This document shows, one piece after another, positions 1 through 10,271 of a stretch of 10,271 nucleotides of DNA (positions within the stretch are counted from its first letter, which is position 1; every line of letters starts with the position of its first letter). Origin of the DNA: a virus. Lineage: Duplodnaviria; Heunggongvirae; Uroviricota; Caudoviricetes. Made by a program: the position numbers and the translations under genes. The stretch is taken from positions 1-10,271 of the IMG/VR virus record IMGVR_UViG_2917855067_000001; one strand, given 5' to 3'. Under the pieces are notes generated by a model. It saw only the letters and a list, made by a program, of their open reading frames with translations. It ran no database searches and was not told the origin of the DNA.

Positions 1-296
1 TCAACTCACGTATTTCAATCTGCTCAGGTGTCATGGTAAAGCAGGTGGATTTTCCCGCTTCGCTCTTCTTTCAGTTGTCGAACCCATTTATCCATCGTGG
101 ATTTGCCGACATTCATCGCAGTGGCAGCGGCGGCAACGGTGTAATGCTGATCGAGTACAAGCTGGGCAGCCTCGAGGCGAAACTCGGGGCTAAAATTGCG
201 TCTGTTACGTCCGGTCATAATGTCACCTGTTTTGACTATGAGGTGATGATATCACCTCTATTCAGGTGGCCAAATTTACTATGCCACTACATTTCA
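1..296 (-). mobile_element. IS3-family insertion sequence, one end only (element continues beyond window start)
   Basis: Contains an orfA-type ORF (24..218) whose product resembles IS911/IS3-group OrfA (RNFS.EF...AQLV.DQ.YTVA.AA.AM.VG.STM..WV.QL..ER.GK), with ..[10 protein letters not shown] continuing in another frame at the window edge. About 80 bp of leader separates the orfA start from a putative 5'-TG terminus (complement of CA near 295-296). Exact boundary and IS name cannot be fixed without a reference inverted repeat. Confidence 0.7.
24..218 (-). CDS. IS3-family transposase OrfA (HTH DNA-binding part), apparently frame-disrupted
   Basis: 64-codon [59 protein letters not shown]..., matching recalled IS911 OrfA up to ..ERQGK. 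The expected continuation (GK-S/T-..[10 protein letters not shown]) is readable only in a different frame after the A-run in GGGAAAA, so a 1-nt indel or sequencing error is likely. Confidence 0.6.
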
Positions 297-378
297 TCGC
301 TTTATTTGCTTCAAGCCACATTTTTGAATCACCAATAAATCGGGCTATTACTGCTTTGTTTTGTGCTGCACGAAGCAT
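297..378 (-). pseudogene. kil: kil-like gene, 5' fragment truncated by the IS insertion
   Basis: Reverse-strand reading from ATG (complement of 376..378) gives MLRAAQNKAVIARFIGDSKMWLEANKA, which resembles recalled lambda Kil (..KFTIATFIGDEKMFREAVDA..). The frame runs straight into the IS terminus, so the 3' part of the gene is missing. Confidence 0.45.
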
Positions 379-392
379 CTGGTGATTGATGG

Positions 393-527
393 CTATTTCA
401 TTGCGCATAACGCCTCCAGTTGTTTCTTTGCTGCTCTGATTAATTGTTTAACTCGGCGTGATAATTCAGATTCGTGCGGGTAGAAAGCGGACATGACGCC
501 GCTACCCGCGAGCTGAAAGTGCATCAT
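393..527 (-). CDS. cIII-like small protein (putative FtsH inhibitor)
   Basis: 44-aa ORF MMHFQLAGSGVMSAFYPHESELSRRVKQLIRAAKKQLEALCAMK. A Shine-Dalgarno AAGGAG (complement of 534..540) sits 6 nt upstream of the ATG. Position between ea10 and kil matches lambda gene order, and the helical region resembles cIII (..ESLLERITRKL..). Internal start of the 61-aa track ORF. Confidence 0.5.
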   Translation of the reverse strand: MMHFQLAGSGVMSAFYPHESELSRRVKQLIRAAKKQLEALCAMK

Positions 528-602
528 GGGTAACTCCTTATATTTGATTGCATAACGAAAATGCCTCTGGTGAAGCATTATTGGTATGCGGTAAAGCCGC
601 GC

Positions 603-971
603 TCAGGCGGCTTTGATAGTCATATCATCTGAATCAAATATTCCTGATGTATCGATATCGGTAATTCTTATTCCTTCACTACCATCCATTGGAGGCCATC
701 CTTCCTGACCATTTCCATCATCCCAGTCGAACTCACAAACAACACCATATGCATTTAAGTCTTTCGAAATTGCTATAAGCAGAGCATGTTGCGCCAGCAT
801 GATTAATACAGCATTTAATACAGCGCCGTGTTTATTGAGTCGGTATTCAGAGTCTGACCAGAAATTATTAATCTGGTGAAGTTTTTCCTCTGTCATTACG
901 TCATGGTCGATTTCAATTTCTATTGATGCTTTCCAGTCGTAATCAATGATGTATTTTTTGATGTTTGACAT
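603..971 (-). CDS. ea10: Ea10-like early protein (lambda ea10 family)
   Basis: 122-aa ORF MSNIKKYIIDYDWKASIEIEIDHDVMTEEKLHQINNFW..., matching my recollection of lambda Ea10 in sequence and length. GAGGA-type ribosome-binding site upstream. Sits between ral and cIII as in lambda. Confidence 0.7.
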   Translation of the reverse strand: MSNIKKYIIDYDWKASIEIEIDHDVMTEEKLHQINNFWSDSEYRLNKHGAVLNAVLIMLAQHALLIAISKDLNAYGVVCEFDWDDGNGQEGWPPMDGSEGIRITDIDTSGIFDSDDMTIKAA

Positions 972-990
972 CTATTCATATCCTCATAGA

Positions 991-1017
991 TAAAAAATCG
1001 CCCTCACACTGGAGGGC
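991..1017 (-). terminator. Rho-independent terminator candidate between ral and ea10
   Basis: On the minus strand, hairpin GCCCTC-cagtgt-GAGGGC (plus coordinates 1000..1017) is followed by GATTTTTTA. It lies about 30 nt upstream of the ea10 start. Confidence 0.5.
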
Positions 1018-1153
1018 AAAGAAGATTTCCAATAATCAGAACAAGTCGGCTCCTGTTTAGTTACGAGCGACATTGCTCCGTGTATTCACTCGTTGGAATG
1101 AATACACAGTGCTGTGTTTATTCTGTTGTTTATGCCAAAAATAAAGGCCACCA

Positions 1154-1354
1154 TCAGGCAGCATTGTTATTCTGTTTACCAAGTTCTCTGGCAATCATTG
1201 CCGTCGTTCGTATTGCCCATTTATCGACATATTTCCCATCTTCCATTACAGGAAACATTTCTTCAGGCTTAACCATGCATTCCGATTGCAGCTTGCATCC
1301 ATTGCATCGTTTGAATTGTCCACACCATTGATTTTTATCAATAGTCGTAGTCAT
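1154..1354 (-). CDS. ral: Ral (restriction alleviation protein)
   Basis: 66-aa ORF MTTTIDKNQWCGQFKRCNGCKLQSECMVKPEEMFPVMEDGKYVDKWAIRTTAMIARELGKQNNNAA, matching recalled lambda Ral nearly residue for residue. Has a 4-Cys cluster. Position downstream of N in the pL operon fits. Confidence 0.8.
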   Translation of the reverse strand: MTTTIDKNQWCGQFKRCNGCKLQSECMVKPEEMFPVMEDGKYVDKWAIRTTAMIARELGKQNNNAA

Positions 1355-1424
1355 ACGGATAGTCCTGGTATTGCTCCATCACATCCTGCGGATGCTCTTC
1401 GAACTCTTCAAATTCTTCTTCCAT
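1338..1424 (-). CDS. Small acidic peptide, lambda orf28-like (28 aa)
   Basis: Minus-strand ORF MEEEFEEFEEHPQDVMEQYQDYPYDYDY (28 codons plus TGA) overlaps the ral start by 17 nt in a different frame. This is the arrangement I recall for lambda orf28 and ral. Confidence 0.45.
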   Translation of the reverse strand: MEEEFEEFEEHPQDVMEQYQDYPYDYDY

Positions 1425-1530
1425 ATCTCACCTTAAATAAGTGGTTTGCTGCCTAATTTCATTTTCTGGCGACCAACACAAGTTACACCCATTTCACTGC
1501 GTGGCTTGCTGTAATAAATTCGGTTAGTTC

Positions 1531-1557
1531 GGACAATAATAAACCCACCGAAGTGGG
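1531..1557 (-). terminator. Rho-independent terminator candidate in the pL operon
   Basis: On the minus strand, hairpin CCCAC-ttcg-GTGGG (plus 1544..1557) is followed by TTTATTATTG. It lies between the 88-aa ORF and orf28/ral, and would be read through under N antitermination. Confidence 0.45.
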
Positions 1558-1630
1558 CTATGACCATTTTTTATTTGGATTTCGTTGGTGAGCGTGGTTA
1601 ACAACTCTGTGCATTACATCCTCATATTTT

Positions 1631-1897
1631 TCATCTGCAATTTTTTTCTACATCTCGAGGAAATGGTGTTGCTAATGCTTTGTCAACTTTGTCCATTGGG
1701 TCTTCATTAATCTTATATTCCGGACCGTCATCTATAGCATTAAATCCAGGTGTTACACCGTTTTCTAATGCATATGCCATTCTCTTTTCCCATCTCGTTA
1801 TTCTCCTTCTGTCTTGAGGTGTAAGACCTCTATCAAATACTTTCCTGTTTTGTCCGCAGTTAGGGTTAACATAGATAGTCTTTTTCACCATAAGCAT
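1631..1897 (-). CDS. Hypothetical protein, AT-rich ORF immediately downstream of N (the slot where lambda has sieB)
   Basis: ORF ..MLMVKKTIYVNPNCGQNRKVFDRGLTPQDRRRITRWEKRMAYALENGVTPGFNAIDDGPEYKINEDPMDKVDKALATPFPRDVEKNCR. Start choice is uncertain (ATG at 1897 or 1891; the track uses TTG at 1903). It abuts the N stop codon. No family recognised. Visibly more AT-rich than its neighbours. Confidence 0.55.
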   Translation of the reverse strand: MLMVKKTIYVNPNCGQNRKVFDRGLTPQDRRRITRWEKRMAYALENGVTPGFNAIDDGPEYKINEDPMDKVDKALATPFPRDVEKNCR

Positions 1898-1899
1898 AC

Positions 1900-2205
1900 T
1901 CAATAAGCACCGTACGGTGGTTTACTATACAATCTTATTCTTTGAACTGCATGTATCTTGTTTCCTAATGGGTTTAAATCCTTGTAGTAAACCCTCCTAT
2001 TTTTTTTCTCGACTTCATCTACTTTCTTGCAGAGAAGGCTGCCAAGTGATGCTGCTTTGTCTGCTCTGACGCAACCAGAGAGTTTTAGCGCAATCTTTCG
2101 CGCCAGTCTCTGTTCTTTCATTGCCTGTTCACGTTGAGCCTGTCTGCGTGCTCTGCGGCGATTTCTGGCGTTATCGTCAGCCAGATATGTAATGACTACT
2201 GTCAT
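1900..2205 (-). CDS. N: N-like transcription antiterminator (arginine-rich motif)
   Basis: 101-aa ORF MTVVITYLADDNARNRRRARRQAQREQ... with an N-terminal arginine-rich motif typical of lambdoid N proteins. Shine-Dalgarno GGAGG 5 nt upstream. nutL lies about 115 nt upstream. First gene leftward of pL. Confidence 0.75.
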   Translation of the reverse strand: MTVVITYLADDNARNRRRARRQAQREQAMKEQRLARKIALKLSGCVRADKAASLGSLLCKKVDEVEKKNRRVYYKDLNPLGNKIHAVQRIRLYSKPPYGAY

Positions 2206-2231
2206 GTTGACCTCCGATGATTGACTTTAGC

Positions 2232-2297
2232 GGTGACGTAACTGGGGGAGGGAGGTTAACTCCCTGATGCTGTTGCGCGGCTGCACTTTACGTCACC
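2232..2297 (-). promoter_or_regulatory. Large inverted repeat in the N leader (candidate RNase III / translational control stem)
   Basis: Perfect 10-bp arms GGTGACGTAA (2232..2241) and TTACGTCACC (2288..2297) enclose an inner hairpin GGGAG-gttaa-CTCCC. The location, between nutL and the N ribosome-binding site, matches where lambda has its RNase III-processed leader structure. Confidence 0.4.
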
Positions 2298-2319
2298 CCA
2301 AAGCCAACTACTCTTTGGT

Positions 2320-2361
2320 TCCCGCATTTCGGCGGGACAATCCCATCAATGTTAAAGAGCC
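2320..2361 (-). promoter_or_regulatory. nutL (boxA + boxB)
   Basis: On the minus strand, boxA GCTCTTTAACA (complement of 2350..2360) is followed by a boxB hairpin TCCCGC-cgaaat-GCGGGA (complement of 2320..2337). The same boxB sequence recurs at nutR. Confidence 0.7.
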
Positions 2362-2399
2362 TGCCAATCTGTTCCGTTTGGCTACCAGCGTCCTGCTGA

Positions 2400-2490
2400 T
2401 GACTTAAATTTAAGATTTCTTTAATTGGTGGTCAAGGGTATTTTTGAAGAAAACTTAAATTTTATTGCGAAGTTTAAGTTTTGCTTTGAT
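2400..2490 (-). promoter_or_regulatory. OL operators and pL promoter (P22-type operator half-sites)
   Basis: OL1 ATTTAAGATTTCTTTAAT (2408..2425) has the same symmetric arms as OR1. Further ..TTAAG/CTT.. sites occur at about 2450..2490. A -35-like TTGACC on the minus strand is the complement of 2430..2435. The -10 is not clear-cut. Confidence 0.5.
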
Positions 2491-2496
2491 TTTTAA

Positions 2497-2526
2497 AGGA
2501 AAGAAAAAAGGGGCGAATGCCCCTTA
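2497..2526 (-). terminator. Rho-independent terminator directly after the c2 stop codon
   Basis: On the minus strand, hairpin GGGGC-attc-GCCCC (plus 2510..2523) is followed by TTTTTTCTTTCC. Confidence 0.65.
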
Positions 2527-3174
2527 TGGAAGGTTTGCTATTTTTGCATCGACAACTACACCGATGATTTTGCAGTTCCCGTTGATCTCAATCATCGGAT
2601 ATTGTGGGTTAAGTGGTTTTAGAAACCTTCTGCCAGCATCAATAACTAACTTCTTGAAAGTTGCCTCGTTTTCTCCTTCGAGCTTTGCCACTACCAGCTT
2701 CCCATTACGAGGTTCTACTTCAGGATCGACTAGTATTATCATCCCTTCCGGGATGCTAAGACCGGCTGGAGCCGTCATCGAATCACCCTTTACGTCCAGC
2801 CAAAACGAATCTTCTGAACAATCTACGGTTGTATCGTACCAGTTATCTATTGCACGCTTATGATATGGCTCTACAGCTTCCATCCAACATCCTGCGCTTA
2901 CCCAACTAATTAGAGGATACGAACCTCTTGGATCATGCCTGCTGTGATAGGCAATGTTTGAAAGACTATCTTCTCCTTTCAACAAGTAATCAGGGGAGCA
3001 CTGCAAAGCCTTGGCTAAGGCCAATAGGTTTTCGCCATTGGGCTCAGTTTCAGAACGCTCCCATTGGGAAATAGCAACATTAGACACGCCAACCATCTTG
3101 CCAAGGGCAGCCTGCCTAATCTTGAGTTCTTTTCTGCGAGCGCGAATACGCTCACCCATCAGTTGTGTATTCAT
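2524..3174 (-). CDS. c2: Prophage repressor, P22 C2-type (LexA/S24 peptidase family, lambda cI functional analogue)
   Basis: 216-aa ORF MNTQLMGERIRARRKELKIRQAALGKMVGVSNVAISQWERSETEPNGENLLALAKALQCSPDYLLKG..., near-identical to my recollection of P22 C2. N-terminal HTH and C-terminal S24 autocleavage domain (..GDSM.., ..KIIGVVV..). Divergent from cro across an operator-rich intergenic region. Confidence 0.92.
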   Translation of the reverse strand: MNTQLMGERIRARRKELKIRQAALGKMVGVSNVAISQWERSETEPNGENLLALAKALQCSPDYLLKGEDSLSNIAYHSRHDPRGSYPLISWVSAGCWMEAVEPYHKRAIDNWYDTTVDCSEDSFWLDVKGDSMTAPAGLSIPEGMIILVDPEVEPRNGKLVVAKLEGENEATFKKLVIDAGRRFLKPLNPQYPMIEINGNCKIIGVVVDAKIANLP

Positions 3175-3182
3175 AGTTAAGA

Positions 3183-3240
3183 CATCTTAAATAAACTTGA
3201 CTTAAGATTCCTTTGATAGATAATTTAAGTGTTCTTTAAT
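3183..3240. promoter_or_regulatory. OR operators with divergent pR/pRM
   Basis: P22-type 18-bp operators ATTTAAGTGTTCTTTAAT (3223..3240) and ACTTAAGATTCCTTTGAT (3200..3217), plus a third TTAA-containing site near 3183..3200. pR: -35 TTGACT (3197..3202), 16-bp spacer, -10 GATAAT (3219..3224), with cro ATG at 3255. Confidence 0.7.
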
Positions 3241-3254
3241 TTCGGAGCGAGTCT

Positions 3255-3440
3255 ATGTACAAGAAAGATGTTATCGACCACTTCGGAACCCAGCGTGCGG
3301 TAGCTAAAGCGTTAGGCATTAGCGATGCAGCAGTCTCTCAGTGGAAGGAAGTCATCCCAGAGAAAGACGCCTATCGACTGGAAGTCGTTACAGCTGGCGC
3401 CCTGAAGTATCAAGAAAGCGCTTACCGCAAAGCGGCATAA
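3255..3440 (+). CDS. cro: Cro (P22-type)
   Basis: 61-aa ORF MYKKDVIDHFGTQRAVAKALGISDAAVSQWKEVIPEKDAYRLEVVTAGALKYQESAYRKAA, matching recalled P22 Cro. Confidence 0.92.
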   Translation: MYKKDVIDHFGTQRAVAKALGISDAAVSQWKEVIPEKDAYRLEVVTAGALKYQESAYRKAA

Positions 3441-3861: not shown

Positions 3862-4023
3862 ATGACAAAACGTCGTAAGAAATACCAGGAAAAAGAAGAG
3901 ATTCGACACCCTGATTCACCTGAGGGATTAGTGGTAGCCGCAGCAAATAACAGGGCGTTCGCAGAGCGCCTTGTTGGTGTTTACAGACTAGCCAAAGCAG
4001 GAGTGAAACATGGGCGTCGTTAA
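3862..4023 (+). CDS. Hypothetical small basic protein between c1 and the O-like gene
   Basis: ATG at 3862 preceded by AGGAG at a good spacing. Product [53 protein letters not shown]. Its 3' end overlaps the O-like start by 14 nt. No family recognised. Confidence 0.4.
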   Translation: MTKRRKKYQEKEEIRHPDSPEGLVVAAANNRAFAERLVGVYRLAKAGVKHGRR

Positions 4024-4831
4024 GTTAGCTGATTACAGGCCTCAACTGGAGGTCGTGGAGCATCGCGTGGCAGATACCGAAGATGGTTTCATGCGCGTTG
4101 CTAACGAGATTACCGACAGTCTGCTGATGGCTGATTTAACCGTCCGGCAGTTGAAGGTGATGCTCGCTATCATGCGCAAGACATACGGATTCAATAAGCC
4201 GATGGATCGACTCACAAACACGCAGATAGCAGCCATGACAGGTATTCATCACACTCATGTTTGCGCTGCCAAGCGCCAGCTTATTGAGCGTAAATTCCTC
4301 ATTGCTGATGGCGTGAAAATCGGAGTGAACAAGGTGGTTTCTCAGTGGATTAGCCAGGACAGCTTAACATTAGCTAAAACAGCTAATAAAACATTAGCCA
4401 AGTCGGCTAATGGGTATAAGCCAAGTCAGCTAAACACAAAAGACAATATACAAAAGACAATAAATACAAATACCCCCTTACCCCCTAACGGGGGCGGCGA
4501 TGGGCAGGTTAAACCTGAACGTCGCAAGGCAGAACGAATCGACTACGAATCCTTCCTGAACGCCTACAACACCGAAGTCGGTGACAGACTGCCACACGCT
4601 GTTGCGGTCAACGAGAAACGCAAACGTCGCCTGAAGAAAATCATCCCGCAACTGAAAACGCCAAACGTGGACGGTTTCAGAGCGTATGTCAGGGCGTTTG
4701 TGCATCAGGCCAAGCCGTTTTACTTCGGAGACAACGACACGGGCTGGACGGCCGATTTTGATTACCTGCTGAGGGAAGACTCGTTAACGGGAGTACGGGA
4801 AGGGAAGTTTGCAGACAGGGGGATTGCATGA
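4010..4831 (+). CDS. Replication initiator, lambda O-like (P22 gene 18-type)
   Basis: 273-aa ORF with an N-terminal domain resembling lambda O (..[37 protein letters not shown]..). Iteron-like repeats and an AT-rich tract lie inside the gene, as for ori-lambda. AGGAG ribosome-binding site upstream. Stop overlaps the helicase start (ATGA). Confidence 0.85.
4350..4475. repeat. Origin-like iteron array plus AT-rich tract inside the O-like gene
   Basis: Four dyad-symmetric repeats of 17-18 bp spaced about 20-24 bp apart (TTAGCCAGGACAGCTTA, TTAGCTAAAACAGCTAA, TTAGCCAAGTCGGCTAA, TAAGCCAAGTCAGCTAA), followed by the A/T-rich run ACACAAAAGACAATATACAAAAGACAATAAATACAAATA and then a G/C palindrome CCCCC..GGGGG. 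Confidence 0.6.
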
Positions 4832-6204
4832 AACAGGATATCGAAGCGAGCGTTATCGGTGGCCTGCTGATTGGTGGATTAACACCAACCGCCAGCGACG
4901 TTCTGGCAACGCTGGAGCCGGAAGCGTTTTCAATTCCGCTCTACCGGAAAGCCTTCGAGGTTATCCGCAAGCAGGCGAGAAACAGAAACCTAATCGACGC
5001 GCTGATGGTTGCCGAGGCGTGCGGAGAGGAGCATTTCACGTCAATCCTGATGACCAGCAAAAACTGCCCGAGTGCCGCAAACCTGAAGGGATATGCCGGA
5101 ATGGTCGCGGATAACTATCACCGCCGTCTGGTGCTGGAAATCATGGATGAAATGCGTGAACCAATCCAAAGCGGAACCATCGACGCATCGAGTCAGGCGA
5201 TGGATGAACTTGTAAAACGGCTCTCAGCCATCAGAAAGCCCCGTGACGAGGTTAAACCTGTACGGTTAGGGGAAATCATCACTGACTACACTGACACGCT
5301 TGACAGGCGTCTGAGGAACGGAGAAGAGTCAGATACCCTGAAGACCGGAATCGAAGAACTTGACGCCATCACCGGAGGGATGAACGCGGAAGACCTGGTG
5401 ATTATCGCCGCTCGTCCTGGTATGGGGAAAACCGAACTGGCGCTGAAGATTGCCGAAGGCGTTGCAAGCCGCGTTATTCCTGGTTCTGACGTCCGGCGCG
5501 GAGTATTGATTTTCTCGATGGAAATGAGCGCATTGCAGATTGCAGAGCGAAGCATTGCCAACGCCGGGAGGATGTCGGTTAGCGTGCTGCGAAATCCTGC
5601 ATCGATGGATGACGAAGGCTGGGCGCGCGTTGCTAACGGCATGAGTCAGCTTGCAGATTTGGATGTATGGGTAGTCGATGCCTCGCGGTTATCTGTCGAA
5701 GAAATTCGCTCAATCGCAGAACGACACAAACAGGAAAATCCAAACCTGTCACTCATCATGGCGGATTATCTTGGCCTGATTGAGAAGCCGAAAGCAGACC
5801 GCAACGACCTCGCAATTGCTCACATCTCAGGAAGCCTTAAGGCGATGGCGAAAGACCTGAAAACGCCTGTTATCTCCCTAAGTCAGCTTTCACGCGATGT
5901 TGAGAAGCGACCAAACAAACGCCCGACAAACGCAGATTTGCGTGATTCAGGAAGCATTGAGCAGGACGCAGACTCAATCATCATGCTCTATCGGGAAGCG
6001 GTATATGACGAGAACAGTAGCGCCGCGCCATTTGCTGAAATCATCGTGACGAAAAACCGTTTTGGCTCACTTGGTACGGTTTACCAGCGGTTCTGTAACG
6101 GACACTTTGTTGCATGTGACCAGGATGAAGCCAGACAGATTTGCACAGCATCAAATGCACCTGCTGCGCGTGGCAGACGATATGCACAAGGGGCTGACGT
6201 ATGA
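4828..6204 (+). CDS. Replicative DNA helicase, DnaB family (P22 gene 12-type)
   Basis: 458-aa ORF with DnaB-like N-terminal domain and a Walker A motif ([15 protein letters not shown]). Translationally coupled to the O-like gene. Confidence 0.9.
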
Positions 6205-6281
6205 CCATCTACATCACTGAGCTAATAACAGGTCTGCTGGTAATCGCAGGCCTTTTTATTTGGGGGAGAGGGAAGTCATGA
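6201..6281 (+). CDS. Putative small hydrophobic peptide (26 aa)
   Basis: ATG 6201 overlaps the helicase stop (ATGA). Product [26 protein letters not shown] is a single hydrophobic helix. Its stop overlaps the ninB ATG. Not in the ORF track because it is below the length cutoff. Confidence 0.3.
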
Positions 6282-6766
6282 AAAAGCTAACCTTTGAAAT
6301 TCGATCTCCAGCACATCAGCAAAACGCTATTCACGCAGTACAGCAAATCCTTCCAGACCCAACCAAACCAATCGTAGTAACCATTCAGGAACGCAACCGC
6401 AGCTTAGACCAGAATCGAAAGCTTTGGGCTTGCCTTGGTGACGTCTCTCGTCAGGTTGAATGGCATGGTCGCTGGCTGGATGCAGAAAGCTGGAAGTGCG
6501 TTTTTACAGCAGCATTAAAGCAGCAGGACGTTGCTGAGGTAACAGGCGCAACAGTAACCAGCATAAATCAGGCTGCGGCTAAAATGGCGCGGGCAGGAAT
6601 CTTAGTCATTGATGGTAAGGTCTGGCGAACGGTGTATTACCGGTTCGCTACCAGGGAAGAACGGGAAGGAAAGGTGAGCACGAATCTGATTTTCAAGGAG
6701 TGTCGCCAGAGTGCCGCGATGAAGCGGGTTTTATTTGTTTATGCGGCGGGGGGAGGAAATCAGTGA
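6278..6766 (+). CDS. ninB: NinB/Orf-family protein (recombination mediator) with divergent C-terminal half
   Basis: From ATG 6278 (Shine-Dalgarno GGGGGAGAGGG upstream), the first ~87 residues [85 protein letters not shown] match recalled lambda NinB. The remainder (AEVTGATVTSINQAAAKMARAG...) diverges from lambda but keeps a family-like pattern. Confidence 0.75.
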   Translation: MKKLTFEIRSPAHQQNAIHAVQQILPDPTKPIVVTIQERNRSLDQNRKLWACLGDVSRQVEWHGRWLDAESWKCVFTAALKQQDVAEVTGATVTSINQAAAKMARAGILVIDGKVWRTVYYRFATREEREGKVSTNLIFKECRQSAAMKRVLFVYAAGGGNQ

Positions 6767-6768
6767 GG

Positions 6769-6798
6769 TTGACGATAACTAATATCTGGCGCTATATT
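6769..6798 (+). promoter_or_regulatory. Sigma70-like promoter candidate just after ninB
   Basis: TTGACG (6769..6774), 18-bp spacer, TATATT (6793..6798). Motif match only. Confidence 0.3.
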
Positions 6799-6861
6799 CT
6801 GTGCGTTGCCGCAAAATCGGCACACGGGATTGGCGTCCCGGATAAGGTAATCGCGACTACT

Positions 6862-6887
6862 ACACGCCGCGAGCGTGTTTTTTATTG
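6862..6887 (+). terminator. Rho-independent terminator candidate
   Basis: Hairpin ACACGC-cgcga-GCGTGT (6862..6878) followed by TTTTTTATTG. Confidence 0.55.
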
Positions 6888-6923
6888 TCGTAAGCATACG
6901 CACATCTGAATTATGGTGGGGCG

Positions 6924-7017
6924 TGTAGGGCCGACTTCGGTCGGGCCGGTTGATTACCCCGGTTACGCCAACCCTACATGTCTCACCACCAAACTGATTG
7001 GCGTCAGCGGTGGTGGT
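6924..7017. repeat. Cluster of GC-rich palindromes (structured element upstream of the Bro-N gene)
   Basis: TGTAGGG (6924..6930) pairs with CCCTACA (6972..6978). Inside: a hairpin GGCC-GAC-ttcg-GTC-g-GGCC with a UUCG-type loop (6929..6947), then GGTTG...CAACC (6948..6973), then CCACCACC-loop-GGTGGTGG (about 6984..7016). Nature unknown. Confidence 0.35.
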
Positions 7018-7041
7018 TAACTTGATTTATAGGTAATCATC

Positions 7042-7647
7042 ATGAGCACACAACTAGTCTTTCATCAAACAAAATTCCATCCTGTTAAACACAACAACAG
7101 TATCTGGCTTACTGCCGTTGAGATTGCTCAAGCTCTCGGATATAAAAAATCTGATGCCGTAACTCAGATCTACGATCGAAATTCCGATGAATTTAGGGCA
7201 GATATGACTGAGACCCTCAATTTGAGTGTCTCAGGGAACTACCAGAAAACAATACGCATTTTCTCCCTCCGTGGTGCCCATTTGATCGCTATGTTCGCCC
7301 GCACTCCTGTAGCCAAAGAATTCCGCCGCTGGGTTCTGGATATTCTCGATCGAGAAGTTCAACAATCCCCAATCACAAAACAATTCACTGATAACGAACT
7401 TTGCACACTCGCCTGGTTATGGCGAGCAGGGGATGTGATGTTAACCGCCTGCCAGAATGTTACTCCACTTCTTCAGGTTGCGGAGCATCGCGAAGCCGGT
7501 CGCTTTACTTCTATTGAGCAAGAATATCCCCAGATACTACATAAGGCGCGCGAAATCCTTGCCAGAGAAACGGCACATGTAAGATTCCAGCCGTGGCAGG
7601 ATGATAAGTGGAGCCGAGTATTGCCGCATTTGCGTTCTGAGCAGTAG
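7042..7647 (+). CDS. Bro-N domain protein (antirepressor / Roi-like family)
   Basis: 201-aa ORF. The N-terminal ~105 aa carry Bro-N-like motifs (..SIWLTAVEIAQALGY.. and ..IRIFSLRGAHLIAMFARTPVAKEFRRWVLDIL..). The C-terminal half is unassigned. Confidence 0.7.
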   Translation: MSTQLVFHQTKFHPVKHNNSIWLTAVEIAQALGYKKSDAVTQIYDRNSDEFRADMTETLNLSVSGNYQKTIRIFSLRGAHLIAMFARTPVAKEFRRWVLDILDREVQQSPITKQFTDNELCTLAWLWRAGDVMLTACQNVTPLLQVAEHREAGRFTSIEQEYPQILHKAREILARETAHVRFQPWQDDKWSRVLPHLRSEQ

Positions 7648-7828
7648 CAATAAAGTTTCCGGTGAGAAATGTCACCAGCATTTTGTTATGAAACGGGTAT
7701 TGGCGGTATATGGGGGCGGGGCTTTAGTTATTAGGTGTCGAGAATTAATTGTTTGTAGCAATATAAAAAGGAGCGCTTAAGTCCGTTTATTTTTTTTAAG
7801 CTTCATATACATAGTGGATAAAAATGAG

Positions 7829-7853
7829 AACCACCCGCTGAACGGGTGGTTTT
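7829..7853. terminator. Terminator hairpin between convergent genes (possibly bidirectional)
   Basis: AACCACCCG-ctgaa-CGGGTGGTT followed by TTTT on the plus strand; the complement is followed by a T-rich tract on the minus strand. It lies between the Bro-N gene end (7647) and the orphan gene end (7928). Confidence 0.6.
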
Positions 7854-7927
7854 GCGCAAGTTAAATTTTATAATTTCAGTGAATCTTTACGCTGTAATAA
7901 TGCAAATGATAGTTGAAAAAAACACAA

Positions 7928-8605
7928 TCAGTCGATGGATTCTCCGTAGGATGCAACTGCCTGAGCGACGCAAAAACGATCAATACACTCTATTTCTCCA
8001 TAATCACGCAGGCAATAATAAGTATTATTGTCTTTATCAAAAGCGTAAATGCTACAAATACCCTCAAGCTCACAACTTGCGTCCCATCCACTATTAGATA
8101 ACGTGCCCCATTCCTGGTAAAGCCCTGCGTTAACTTCTCGATTGATAATATGCGGTCCACTATAGTTATCATAATCGTAACTATAGATGTCACGTGCCTC
8201 AGGAAAATTCCCGTTCATGTTTTCAATCCACGGTAAAATATCTTTAACTGAGTTATAAAGTTCAATGCTGTATTTGAAAAAACGCTTCACAATAAAAACA
8301 TAGATGCCGGCAGATTTGTTTGTTGATTTATCAGTGGCGAAAATGACAAAAATCTTCCCAACGCACTTTTCATCTACGCCCGGAAAAGTTACTGTGCCAT
8401 CCTGGCTAACCGCCAGAACATTATTGTCTGCATTAGTGCTACAGGTCCATTTTACCTTGTCATTATTAATAGGGTCATTATCAATGACCATCTTGAAGGT
8501 TGCTCCTGGGAACAAACTGTTAGGGAAACAGTAACCACTCTCCATATCATTTTTAATATCATAGATATGGCTATCAACTAACACGCCTGTAATTTTGCTC
8601 ATCAT
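7928..8605 (-). CDS. Orphan AT-rich hypothetical protein (moron candidate), opposite strand to the phage early operon
   Basis: Long open frame on the minus strand within visibly AT-rich DNA, where long chance ORFs are unlikely. Probable start is ATG-ATG at 8605/8602 with AGAGAG upstream, giving MMSKITGVLVDSHIYDIKNDMESGYCFPNSLFPG... of about 225 aa (the track's TTG start at 8650 is less likely). Cys- and Asp/Asn/Tyr-rich C-terminal part, no obvious signal peptide. No family recognised. Confidence 0.6.
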   Translation of the reverse strand: MMSKITGVLVDSHIYDIKNDMESGYCFPNSLFPGATFKMVIDNDPINNDKVKWTCSTNADNNVLAVSQDGTVTFPGVDEKCVGKIFVIFATDKSTNKSAGIYVFIVKRFFKYSIELYNSVKDILPWIENMNGNFPEARDIYSYDYDNYSGPHIINREVNAGLYQEWGTLSNSGWDASCELEGICSIYAFDKDNNTYYCLRDYGEIECIDRFCVAQAVASYGESID

Positions 8606-9018
8606 TGAACTCTCTTTGTTTGTTAAATAAAAAGTTTTATTCCTGAACAACGGAACACGCTGATATTAATGCAGCCAATGAATTGTTGTTGTTATTTGGA
8701 GGTTATATAGTGGTATGAATGTTATTATGCGATGTCTCTGAGTGATGGGGTAAGGATTATATGATTCGCTTTTGAGATTTACCTATGTCAGGCGTTGCTG
8801 TTCATGTTCGTCCCCGTTGTCAGTCTTCTTAGTCTGAGCTAATGTCATCATCAATGGGTTATCAGTTTTCTCTGAAGTTATATAATTAATTGAGCGCCAT
8901 AGCACCATGGGGCATTGTTGAATTTCATCTTCAATTGATTTTCCATAATCAACTCGCCATAATCATGTCATCGGAGCCTGAACACCTCCGGTGACTTCTG
9001 CGCTAAACGGGGACGTTT

Positions 9019-9120
9019 ATGCGCACACACAATCTAAACTCTCTTCTCCCTTCACAGATGCAGAAATGCACCTGCGATTTTTTGCATCCAACGTTTGACC
9101 TCTGCGGAGGTGAAGCGTGA
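9019..9120 (+). CDS. ylcH: Small ORF, ylcH-like (33 aa)
   Basis: ATG 9019 to TGA 9118..9120 gives [33 protein letters not shown]. Its stop overlaps the ybcN GTG start, the position ylcH holds upstream of ybcN in DLP12. Sequence match to ylcH is not verified. Confidence 0.35.
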
Positions 9121-9572
9121 ACCTCCCACAAGACGGCATCAAATTACATCGCGGCAACTTCACCGCTATCGGTCAGCAGATCCAGCCTTATCTGGAGGAT
9201 GGCAAATGCTTTCGCATGGTGCTTAAACCGTGGCGCGAGAGACGCAGTCTTTCCCAGAATGCACTCAGCCACATGTGGTACAGCGAAATCAGTGAGTACC
9301 TCATCAGCAGGGGTAAAACGTTCGCTACTGCAGTATGGGTAAAAGATGCACTCAAACACACATACCTCGGTTATGAAACCAAGGACCTGGTTGATGTCGT
9401 AACCGGCGAAATCACTACGATCCAGTCGTTACGCCATACCTCCGATCTTGATACCGGAGAGATGTATGTCTTCCTGTGTAAGGTTGAAGCCTGGGCGATG
9501 AATATTGGCTGCCACCTGACTATTCCGCAGAGCTGCGAGTTCCAGCTGCTGCGCGACAAGCAGGAGGCGTAA
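9117..9572 (+). CDS. ybcN: YbcN-like protein (DLP12-type; Orf/NinB-family, reported base-flipping protein)
   Basis: 151-aa ORF from GTG 9117 with GGAGG 6 nt upstream: [67 protein letters not shown]..., matching recalled E. coli YbcN. Confidence 0.85.
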
Positions 9573-9742
9573 TGGCTACACCGCTTATTCGTGTCATGAG
9601 CGGACACATCTACAGAGTACCAAATCGTCGTAAGCGTAAGCCTGAGCTGAAACCATCCGAAATACCAACACTGCTCGGATATACCGCCAGCCTGGTTGAT
9701 AAAAAATGGTTGCGACTGGCAGCAAGGAGGAATCATGGCTGA
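9572..9742 (+). CDS. ninE: NinE
   Basis: 56-aa [59 protein letters not shown]. Its start overlaps the ybcN stop (TAATG). Matches recalled NinE. Confidence 0.85.
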   Translation: MATPLIRVMSGHIYRVPNRRKRKPELKPSEIPTLLGYTASLVDKKWLRLAARRNHG

Positions 9743-10025
9743 TTTGAGAAAAGCAGCGCGTGGTCGGGAATGCCAGGTAAGAATCCCTGGCGTATGTAAT
9801 GGCAATCCTGAAACGTCTGTACTGGCACATATCCGGCTGGCTGGATTGTGCGGTACCGGTATCAAACCGCCAGACCTGATTGCCACCATTGCATGTTCTG
9901 CCTGTCACGACGAAATCGACCGCCGCACACATTTTGTCGATGCTGAGTATGCAAAAGAATGCGCGCTGGAAGATATGGCGAGAACGCAGGTTATCTGGCT
10001 GAAAGAGGGGGTAATCAAGGCGTGA
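9735..10025 (+). CDS. ybcO: YbcO-like protein (DUF1364; putative nuclease, Cys-rich)
   Basis: ATG 9735 with AGGAGG upstream, inside the 9696..10025 track ORF. 96-aa product [64 protein letters not shown]... matches recalled YbcO. Confidence 0.85.
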
Positions 10026-10258
10026 ATACTTACTACATCACACTACCCTGGCCGCCGAGCAATAACCGCTACTACCGCCATAATCGCGGGCGCACGCACA
10101 TCAGCGCAGAGGGGCAGGTATACCGCGATAACGTCGCCCGAATCATCAAAGGCTCCATGCTGGATATCGGTCTGGCTATGCCAGTGAAATCCGTATTGAC
10201 GTGCCACATGCCGGATCGCCGTCGCCGTGACCTGGATAATCTGCAAAAGCAGCTTTGA
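10022..10258 (+). CDS. rusA: RusA-like Holliday junction resolvase, frame ends prematurely relative to canonical RusA
   Basis: GTG 10022 overlaps the ybcO stop (GTGA). Product [76 protein letters not shown] matches recalled RusA up to ..DNLQK, then reads QL-stop. RusA-like sequence (DALNQ) continues in another frame to the window end. Confidence 0.7.
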
Positions 10259-10271
10259 CGCACTCAACCAA

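Follow-up and report, generated by a model that had tools for sequence, protein, structure and literature searches.

The novel joints of mosaic lambdoid phages are said, in the model of Hendrix and Juhala, to arise by illegitimate recombination. The debate on illegitimate versus relaxed homologous recombination in phage mosaicism is summarised in PMC3945230. In the Orf (NinB) protein of phage lambda the change R103E abolishes DNA binding and changes at R103, V106 and helix alpha5 abolish or impair it, whilst YbcN of prophage DLP12 is a distant member of the Orf family (16% identity) which binds single-stranded DNA and SSB (Curtis et al. 2014, PMC4118853). Here we analysed a stretch of 10,271 nucleotides (nt) from the IMG/VR record IMGVR_UViG_2917855067_000001 (which we refer to as the window, and which is the entire contig PDIE01000014.1 of assembly GCA_004745295.1). 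This DNA forms the early-right region of a lambdoid prophage, and an open-reading frame (ORF) of 162 codons in it is the first 85 codons of ninB fused in frame to the last 77 codons of an unrelated gene, ren. RefSeq places the window proteins in "unclassified Escherichia" strains. An original prediction, made from the letters of this DNA, had proposed that recombination between ninB alleles captured a set of cargo genes, leaving two Orf/NinB-family paralogs, ninB and ybcN, on either side of an accessory island; this was partly supported, being right on the mosaic joint and on YbcN and wrong on the mechanism and on the borders of the island.

The front of the chimeric ORF was described in that prediction as lambda-like and then diverging, and its residues 1-85 are indeed 100% identical to residues 1-85 of lambda NinB (as also to chain A of 1PC6), the similarity ending after KQQDV. 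The Pfam NinB profile matches residues 3-106 (E 8.5e-35) and PHROG 72 (NinB/Orf) spans residues 1-100. Beyond the break the alignment with NinB gives way to Ren: residues 84-155 align with lambda Ren 21-92 with 65 of 72 positions identical (90%, E 3e-47), and PHROG 142 (Ren-like exclusion protein) spans residues 82-157 (E 1.2e-30, profile positions 29-109 of 116). Ren residues 23-99 are kept (77 of 99) and the first 22 are gone, the Q-D-V codons being common to both parents, and the frame runs to the natural ren stop, with the same C-terminus MKRVLFVYAAGGGNQ as the intact Ren of a related prophage (L011, below). By sequence comparison the C-terminal half of the chimera is Ren-derived, without full-length membership of the Ren family, so that the half which had been taken for a diverged NinB is unrelated to it.

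Of the Orf structure the chimera has the N-terminal core, namely the beta1-alpha1-beta2 RAGNYA segment and alpha2 with R41, Q45, N46, K48 and W50, and it shows no significant alignment to NinB 105-146, so the complete fold is not there. Residue 85 falls at the end of alpha3, as placed by the secondary structure of the YbcN model and the hhalign register, and the chimera is without the beta3-beta4 dimer-interface strands, R103 and V106 at the channel mouth, alpha4 and the DNA-binding alpha5 (residues about 86-146). Because beta3-beta4, R103, V106 and alpha5 are lost, the hybrid is presumably not an active Orf. RefSeq calls the chimera "recombination protein NinB" (WP_130210692.1 and relatives); naming based on Pfam catches only the N-terminal NinB match and the Ren half is overlooked. 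Being a NinB fragment plus Ren, the chimera ought not to be listed among the Orf-family recombinases.

The two genes meet at a 10-nt microhomology, CAGGACGTTG; the parental ninB and ren have no longer exact string in common. It lies at nt 247-256 of ninB (codons 83-86) and nt 58-67 of ren (codons 20-23), and as it is in frame 0 in both parents, where it encodes Q-D-V, the fusion is in frame. To the left, window 6201-6533 is 95.5% identical to lambda 40567-40899, which comprises the ren-ninB spacer and ninB codons 1-85; to the right, window 6523-6732 is 90% identical to lambda ren (40336-40545) and 96% identical to the ren of PhiR26_1 and PhiR5_1. The ninB homology of lambda, P22 and an E. coli prophage (L014) stops at 6533, and the ren homology of lambda, DLP12, PhiR26_1 and L011 starts at 6523/6524, hence the mosaic junction which the original prediction had placed after KQQDV is genuine. 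In lambda ren lies upstream of ninB, therefore this is a joint between two genes and not local divergence. Across the joint, identity to the ninB parent L014 drops from 0.91-0.99 on the left to 0.22-0.29 on the right, and that to the ren parent L011 rises from 0.09-0.28 to 0.89-0.96. No flanking homeology was found at the joint, where cross-identity on either side is 9-29%, which argues for microhomology-mediated illegitimate recombination and not for the relaxed homologous exchange with which PMC3945230 deals.

Both parental arrangements survive. L014, with a helicase and an intact ninB, is 98.2% identical to the window over 5300-6533, and the same helicase and intact ninB arrangement occurs in about 260 complete E. 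coli genomes at about 98% identity to that segment. L011, from a related Escherichia genome (RHJN01000010.1), has O, a P of the lambda type and an intact ren of 99 aa, followed by the 35-codon ORF, the Bro-N gene and the orphan gene of the window, and is 99.1% identical to window 6524-8715, the match beginning exactly at the joint. The 162-aa fusion itself recurs in independently assembled contigs of several genomes (L005, L007, L010 and L012 besides the window), and the joint sequence is also present in an IMG/VR contig (L019). A degenerate cross-joint pattern had one match in 2.9 million IMG/VR contigs and one in 185,579 species-representative genomes (Escherichia sp. E1V33), and the two matches are the same prophage (98.8-99.2% identical). 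No single-piece match to the joint was present in 5,426 complete E. coli genomes and 50,697 phage records; every hit of 100% coverage in these sets consists of two pieces ~565 bp apart in the ordinary ren...ninB order. The joint is real, recent and rare.

The composition of the chimera, the exact joint, both parental arrangements, the borders of the cargo slot and the identity of the RNA module within it (both below) can be read directly, and the region was in all probability made by one illegitimate, microhomology-mediated crossover between two lambdoid genomes, with the cargo already in place. One parent (A) would have been of the HK97/P22/CUS-3 type, with an O-like initiator, a DnaB-type helicase, tR2 and ninB, and the other (B) of the lambda-P/DLP12/phage-82 type, with O, P, ren, a variable cargo slot and ylcH-ybcN-ninE-ybcO-rusA-Q. 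Strands joined at CAGGACGTTG would give the open ninB(1-85)::ren(23-99) frame, and the recombinant would retain the whole replication module of parent A and the whole nin region of parent B. The crossover would have been intermolecular, and the cargo (an antirepressor cassette and an invasin-like gene), lying between ren and ylcH beforehand, would have been carried passively with parent B. As L011 has the window cargo behind an intact ren, the cargo is older than the ninB-ren joint, which therefore did not capture it. The prophage may tolerate the joint since both genes hit are dispensable and the complete Orf-family function is provided by ybcN.

Several points weigh against this reading. Neither parent is 100% identical; L011 differs at 7 positions in 6524-6766, two of them directly after the joint (A-A-V versus A-E-V), so the true donor would be a relative of L011, or else mutations followed the crossover. 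The L011 contig ends within the cargo, and its continuation into ylcH-ybcN is drawn from other loci. A 10-nt match between genes of such size is expected ~0.1 times by chance, hence use of the microhomology is plausible and on its own not statistically compelling. Finally, every carrier has the ORF intact, a single non-synonymous change separating the lineages, which neither proves nor excludes a function.

The same joint could have been made within one molecule, by a microhomology deletion between tandem or neighbouring lambdoid prophages running from mid-ninB of parent A to ren codon 20 of parent B. Such a deletion yields precisely the observed joint and module order, and several lambdoid prophages are often found per Escherichia genome, with up to 8 matching places per genome, but a tandem precursor has no direct evidence and the sequence cannot separate this from a crossover between phage and prophage. 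We regard this as a distinct though minor chance, one which forms a share of the probability given to the illegitimate crossover and is not added to it.

Alternatively, the hybrid could be a selected, functional protein, for example a Ren-type winged-helix with an N-terminal NinB RAGNYA/alpha2 module, and not a neutral scar: every carrier has the ORF open and in frame, and it keeps five conserved Orf residues (R41, Q45, N46, K48 and W50) together with 77 of the 99 Ren residues. However, the fusion is very young and rare, and as its carriers are 99-100% identical and amount to a handful of isolates, the open frame is uninformative on selection; the dimer-interface strands, R103, V106 and alpha5 of Orf are gone, and the in-frame result is accounted for by the common Q-D-V codons. 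A selected hybrid is therefore improbable.

The ybcN product of the window is 95% identical to DLP12 YbcN, matches NCBIfam PRK09741 over its full length (E 7.5e-83) and belongs over its full length to PHROG 72 (E 1.6e-51), the same PHROG as lambda NinB (E 9.5e-59). Its Pfam PF05772 score is 20.9 bits, under the gathering score of 23.8, whilst several close YbcN homologues bear a precomputed PF05772 hit. BLASTP of YbcN against lambda NinB was not significant, with only the RSLxQN motif in common, hhalign gave a weak match (E 0.055) with 111 columns in register, and neither phmmer nor hmmsearch with a 33-sequence YbcN profile found anything among the PDB sequences. An AF2 model of YbcN (predicted local distance difference test, pLDDT, 88.1) had as its top two matches among 350,542 PDB chains 1PC6_B (E 3.9e-3, probability 1.00) and 1PC6_A (E 1.6e-2, probability 0.99), with TM 0.47-0.52, the next hit lying at E 0.24 and probability 0.21; the similarity of the modelled fold to 1PC6 is moderate, yet clearly the best. 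R43, Q47, N48 and H52, which align with Orf R41, Q45, N46 and W50, are invariant in 33 YbcN sequences. What carries the kinship of YbcN and NinB is thus PHROG 72 together with the fold search and published work (PMC4118853), the sequence-only tests being weak or negative, and the original prediction had rightly put YbcN in the Orf/NinB family and ahead of ninE; in the window ybcN lies directly upstream of ninE. ybcN is the sole complete Orf/NinB-family gene of the window prophage.

Homology to other prophages also fixes the borders of the cargo. Homology to DLP12 covers the ren segment at 6524-6732 (91-95%) and restarts at 8935, 84 nt upstream of ylcH, to continue to 10266 at 94.2% identity, and homology to PhiR26_1 and PhiR5_1 stops at 6732 and restarts at 8932. 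The shared breaks at 6732 and 8932-8935 define a variable slot, with the final ~11 codons of ren on one side and the leader of ylcH on the other. Its content differs between prophages: emrE-ylcJ-ybcK-ybcL-ybcM in DLP12, PD-lambda-1, Rha and a hypothetical gene in PhiR26_1, small genes and Rha in PhiR5_1, P22AR_C and a holE-like pseudogene in strain 95-3322, and P22AR_C and a HEPN gene in strain 2014C-3057. In the window the gene order reported in the original prediction, a Bro-N gene, a convergent orphan gene and then ylcH-ybcN-ninE, was found as described, and the identities behind these observations have E-values from 1e-78 to 0, far past chance. The left border of the island is the ren 3' end at 6732/6733 and not ninB, so the idea of two flanking paralogs falls.

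These borders bear on the idea that homologous or homeologous recombination, ninB with ninB or ninB with ybcN, captured the cargo, so that the paralogs flank the island and the 3' half of the ninB ORF is a diverged NinB. YbcN truly is a distant Orf-family member (PMC4118853), and a NinB-derived segment does sit upstream of the cargo; against this, the 3' half of the ORF is Ren, YbcN and lambda NinB have no DNA or BLASTP-level similarity able to support homologous exchange, the slot border is the 3' end of ren, and in L011 a 99%-identical cargo lies behind an intact ren with no ninB upstream. The crossover was one of ninB with ren, and capture between ninB alleles is very hard to believe, being refuted by the condition that the original prediction itself had set, a C-terminal half unrelated to the family. 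An assembler mis-join of two prophages is least credible of all, for although the window is a short draft contig (10.3 kb) with an insertion sequence (IS) fragment at its flank, the shared string is just 10 nt and the joint is in at least 5 independently assembled contigs of different strains, one of them 131 kb long, and in IMG/VR.

The slot holds two stacked cassettes in the window, and between them lies a second, orphaned ren 3' end, ATGAAACGGGTATTGGCGGTATATGG. All loci of the window type have this copy, PhiR26_1 and PhiR5_1 lack it downstream of Rha, and it is another allele than the ren end at 6722-6766. We infer that it is the scar of an earlier event which set cassette 1 and a different ren allele before an older arrangement of ren and the orphan gene. 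A direct-repeat or target-site-duplication origin of the BroN cassette was considered and rejected, since the alleles at these two ends differ (MKRVLFVYAAGGGNQ followed by the stop, versus MKRVLAVYGGGAL...) and no insertion can have duplicated one into the other; one homologous and one illegitimate crossover explain the two ends better. In a generic scan of 6000-10271 for repeats, no long ones, direct or inverted, were found to flank the island. In PhiR26_1 (L001 4807-4895 and 6741-6829) the ylcH-leader border, window 8999-9087, occurs twice, one copy lying between the PD-lambda-1 and Rha cassettes, and this is possibly a second footprint of cassette stacking at the slot borders.

Cassette 1 is an antirepressor module. 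The structured non-coding DNA which had been noticed downstream of ninB is real (6766-7042), and it matches the Rfam isrK and C4 families above their gathering scores. From sequence, 6792-7041 reads as an isrK-like small RNA (sRNA) together with a C4 antisense RNA and its a1/b1 and a2/b2 targets, and the promoter-like site upstream of this leader is a candidate promoter of the antirepressor operon. The C4 loop GATTACC (6952-6958) is perfectly complementary over 7 nt to GGTAATC at 6846-6852 and 7032-7038, the second of these, the a2 site, taking in the putative Shine-Dalgarno sequence (TAGG) from which the Bro-N gene would be translated, with its start codon at 7042. Similarly, the C4 bulge ACGCCAA (6965-6971) is perfectly complementary over 7 nt to TTGGCGT at 6830-6836 and 6998-7004. 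Minimum-free-energy folding puts 6952-6958 in a hairpin loop, save its last base, and 6965-6971 in the internal bulge. C4 would repress translation of the antirepressor by pairing over the predicted ribosome-binding site. The Bro-N gene product matches Pfam Bro-N (E 1.9e-13) and P22_AR_C (E 1.7e-15) and PHROG 245 and 5060, "anti-repressor Ant", and isrK-C4-P22AR_C cassettes of identical type occur in L001, L011, L017 and L018, of which L001, L017 and L018 are E. coli prophages. The order of the module is that of the P1 c4-icd-ant operon. The isrK-orf45-anrP locus of Gifsy-1 has the same architecture, and published models differ, with C4 repressing and IsrK activating in trans (PMC4825925).

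Cassette 2 carries the orphan gene, which has a G+C content of about 38%. Only 24 homologue clusters were found for it, all in Escherichia, where many belong to E. ruysiae or to species without a name. When 1.84 billion representative proteins were searched with a profile there were 50 hits, of which those at a distance fall on the C-termini of IAT_beta/Big_1/Invasin_D3/D4 adhesins, and Pfam Invasin_D4 matched weakly. PADLOC, PHROGs and NCBIfam gave no match, a BFVD search only single Ig-domain matches, and megablast with the cassette no match in complete E. coli genomes. An AF2 model (pLDDT 86.5, predicted template-modelling score 0.85) superimposes over its full length on invasin D4-D5 (Foldseek, 1CWV, E 6.9e-12, TMq 0.66), with intimin 1F00 at E 1.7e-6, and as modelled the orphan is a stand-alone invasin/intimin D4-D5-like protein with Ig-like and C-type-lectin-like domains. 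A Pfam scan found no IAT_beta, LysM or Big_1 domain and the model starts straight with the Ig-like domain: the orphan corresponds to the tip module of an inverse autotransporter and not to such a protein as a whole. Reading of the sequence, with no predictor used, showed no hydrophobic signal sequence at the N-terminus, and the protein is probably cytoplasmic. A 74%-identical copy is found in other Escherichia chromosomes, in a near-erased remnant at the DLP12 site with the order argU-int'-emrE-orphan-ninE'-ybcH (L008 5782-7825, JAVHFG010000040.1), where of the cargo just emrE and the orphan survive; dN/dS of this orphan against the window copy is 0.43.

Taken with the orphaned ren scar and the ylcH duplication of PhiR26_1 as footprints, it is conceivable, and we put it forward only tentatively, that the slot is a cassette-stacking hotspot which exchanges cargo at conserved borders and that the orphan is a previously undescribed stand-alone invasin/intimin D4-D5 module, which may be a new prophage-borne conversion or defence factor, acting as an intracellular adhesin tip or exported by some as yet unrecognised route.

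The remaining features of the window are collected in Table 1. The ybcO product has a Pfam YbcO match (E 1.4e-42), and that of ninE scores 23.4 bits against Pfam NinE, slightly below the cut-off of 25, despite 94% nucleotide identity of the region to DLP12 ninE. At the left end of the contig (1-270) there is an IS3-family transposase orfA fragment (24-218, minus strand); the sister contigs L005 and L007 begin at window 271 and 262 respectively, which is consistent with a repeated IS element beside kil breaking the assemblies. Compared with L005, which is 99.93% identical, the window has an extra T at 1641 that splits a 112-aa gene, called as 49 aa, and several 1-nt indels fall in the final 80 nt of the contig (10189-10267, the start of rusA). 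The extra T and the indels are probably sequencing or assembly errors, or else a real frameshift.

Table 1. Positions of the features of the 10,271-nt window
Feature	Position	Strand	Remarks
kil, cIII, ral, then P22-c2-like repressor, cro, cII	ahead of the O-like initiator		in this order
O-like initiator	4010-4831
DnaB-type helicase	4828-6204
Homologue of lambda ren-ninB intergenic region	6201-6277	+	part of the 6201-6533 match; 95.5% to lambda 40567-40643; from the ninB-donating module
tR2-like intrinsic terminator	6230-6253		hairpin and T-run in terminator scan
Chimeric ORF ninB'::'ren	6278-6766	+	162 aa
Recombination joint	6524-6533	+	10-nt microhomology CAGGACGTTG
Variable cargo slot	6733-8931		two stacked cassettes; left border ren 3' end, right border ylcH leader
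Cassette 1	6733-7687		antirepressor module
Promoter-like site	6769-6798	+	TTGACG-18-TATATT; 10/12 consensus matches
c4-a1b1 target element (RF03163)	6792-6844	+	41.9 bits, just below gathering score 46.7; E 5e-8
isrK-like Hfq-binding sRNA (RF01394)	6807-6883	+	61.2 bits, gathering score 50; overlaps c4-a1b1 element
Terminator hairpin of the isrK-like sRNA	6862-6878		terminator scan
C4 antisense RNA (RF01695)	6909-6993	+	74.2 bits, gathering score 45
35-codon ORF	6913-7020		overlaps C4; positional counterpart of Gifsy-1 orf45
Antirepressor-type gene	7042-7647	+	201 aa; Bro-N and P22AR C-terminal domain
Second, orphaned ren 3' end	7688-7713	+	ATGAAACGGGTATTGGCGGTATATGG, 26 nt; 26/26 identical to lambda ren 3' end
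Cassette 2	about 7747-8743		low G+C, about 37-40%; own terminator and orphan gene
Intrinsic terminator of the orphan gene	7829-7851	-	10-bp stem and T-run
Orphan cargo gene	7928-8605	-	225 aa; convergent
ylcH leader	8932-9018	+	conserved right slot border
ylcH	9019-9120	+	conserved right slot border
ybcN	9117-9572	+
ninE	9572-9742	+	DLP12/82-type nin region continued
ybcO	9735-10025	+	DLP12/82-type nin region continued

Compared with lambda NinB/Orf (1PC6; PF05772; PHROG 72), the hybrid shares residues 1-85, the upstream intergenic region and the tR2-like terminator, but its residues past 85 are swapped for Ren, making it a fragment and not a NinB allele. Compared with lambda Ren (the Rex-exclusion resistance protein; PHROG 142), its Ren 21-92 segment is 90% identical, whereas NinB 1-85 and a DnaB-helicase replication module stand in for the first 22 residues and the upstream P. 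The DLP12/phage 82 nin region (ren-[cargo]-ylcH-ybcN(orf151)-ninE-ybcO-rusA-ylcG-Q) has the same order, the same slot position and 94% nucleotide identity from 8935, yet there the cargo is emrE-ylcJ-ybcK-ybcL-ybcM in place of isrK/C4-antirepressor and the invasin-like gene, and the left neighbour is a P remnant and a whole (IS3-split) ren in place of a helicase and ninB'. As the ren-ylcH slot holds emrE in DLP12 and anti-phage genes (PD-lambda-1, HEPN) elsewhere, it is a sensible place to seek new cargo. The immI region of P1/P7 (c4-icd-ant) and isrK-orf45-anrP of Salmonella Gifsy-1 share with cassette 1 the C4/isrK/a1b1 matches, the paired targets and a short ORF before the antirepressor, but the window module sits in the cargo slot of a lambdoid nin region, its antirepressor is a 201-aa Bro-N/P22AR_C protein and its regulation is predicted from sequence. 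The whole orphan matches the Ig-like and C-type-lectin-like C-terminal module of Yersinia invasin (D4-D5, 1CWV) and of EPEC (enteropathogenic E. coli) intimin (D2-D3, 1F00), the receptor-binding superdomain, but it is a stand-alone protein of 225 aa carried as prophage cargo, without LysM, an IAT beta-barrel or a Big_1 repeat array. The feature as a whole is ordinary lambdoid mosaicism, unusually well documented, beside a cargo slot of the kind usual in DLP12/phage-82-type prophages, and leaves current understanding of lambdoid phages unchanged. As in joints of the Hendrix/Juhala type, homology switches sharply without flanking similarity, the genes hit are dispensable and the modules on both sides are kept; here, however, the joint lies inside two ORFs which are fused in frame, and both parental configurations survive at 98-99% identity, so that the event can be reconstructed to the base, and an illegitimate joint resolved in this way bears on the debate between illegitimate and relaxed homologous recombination.

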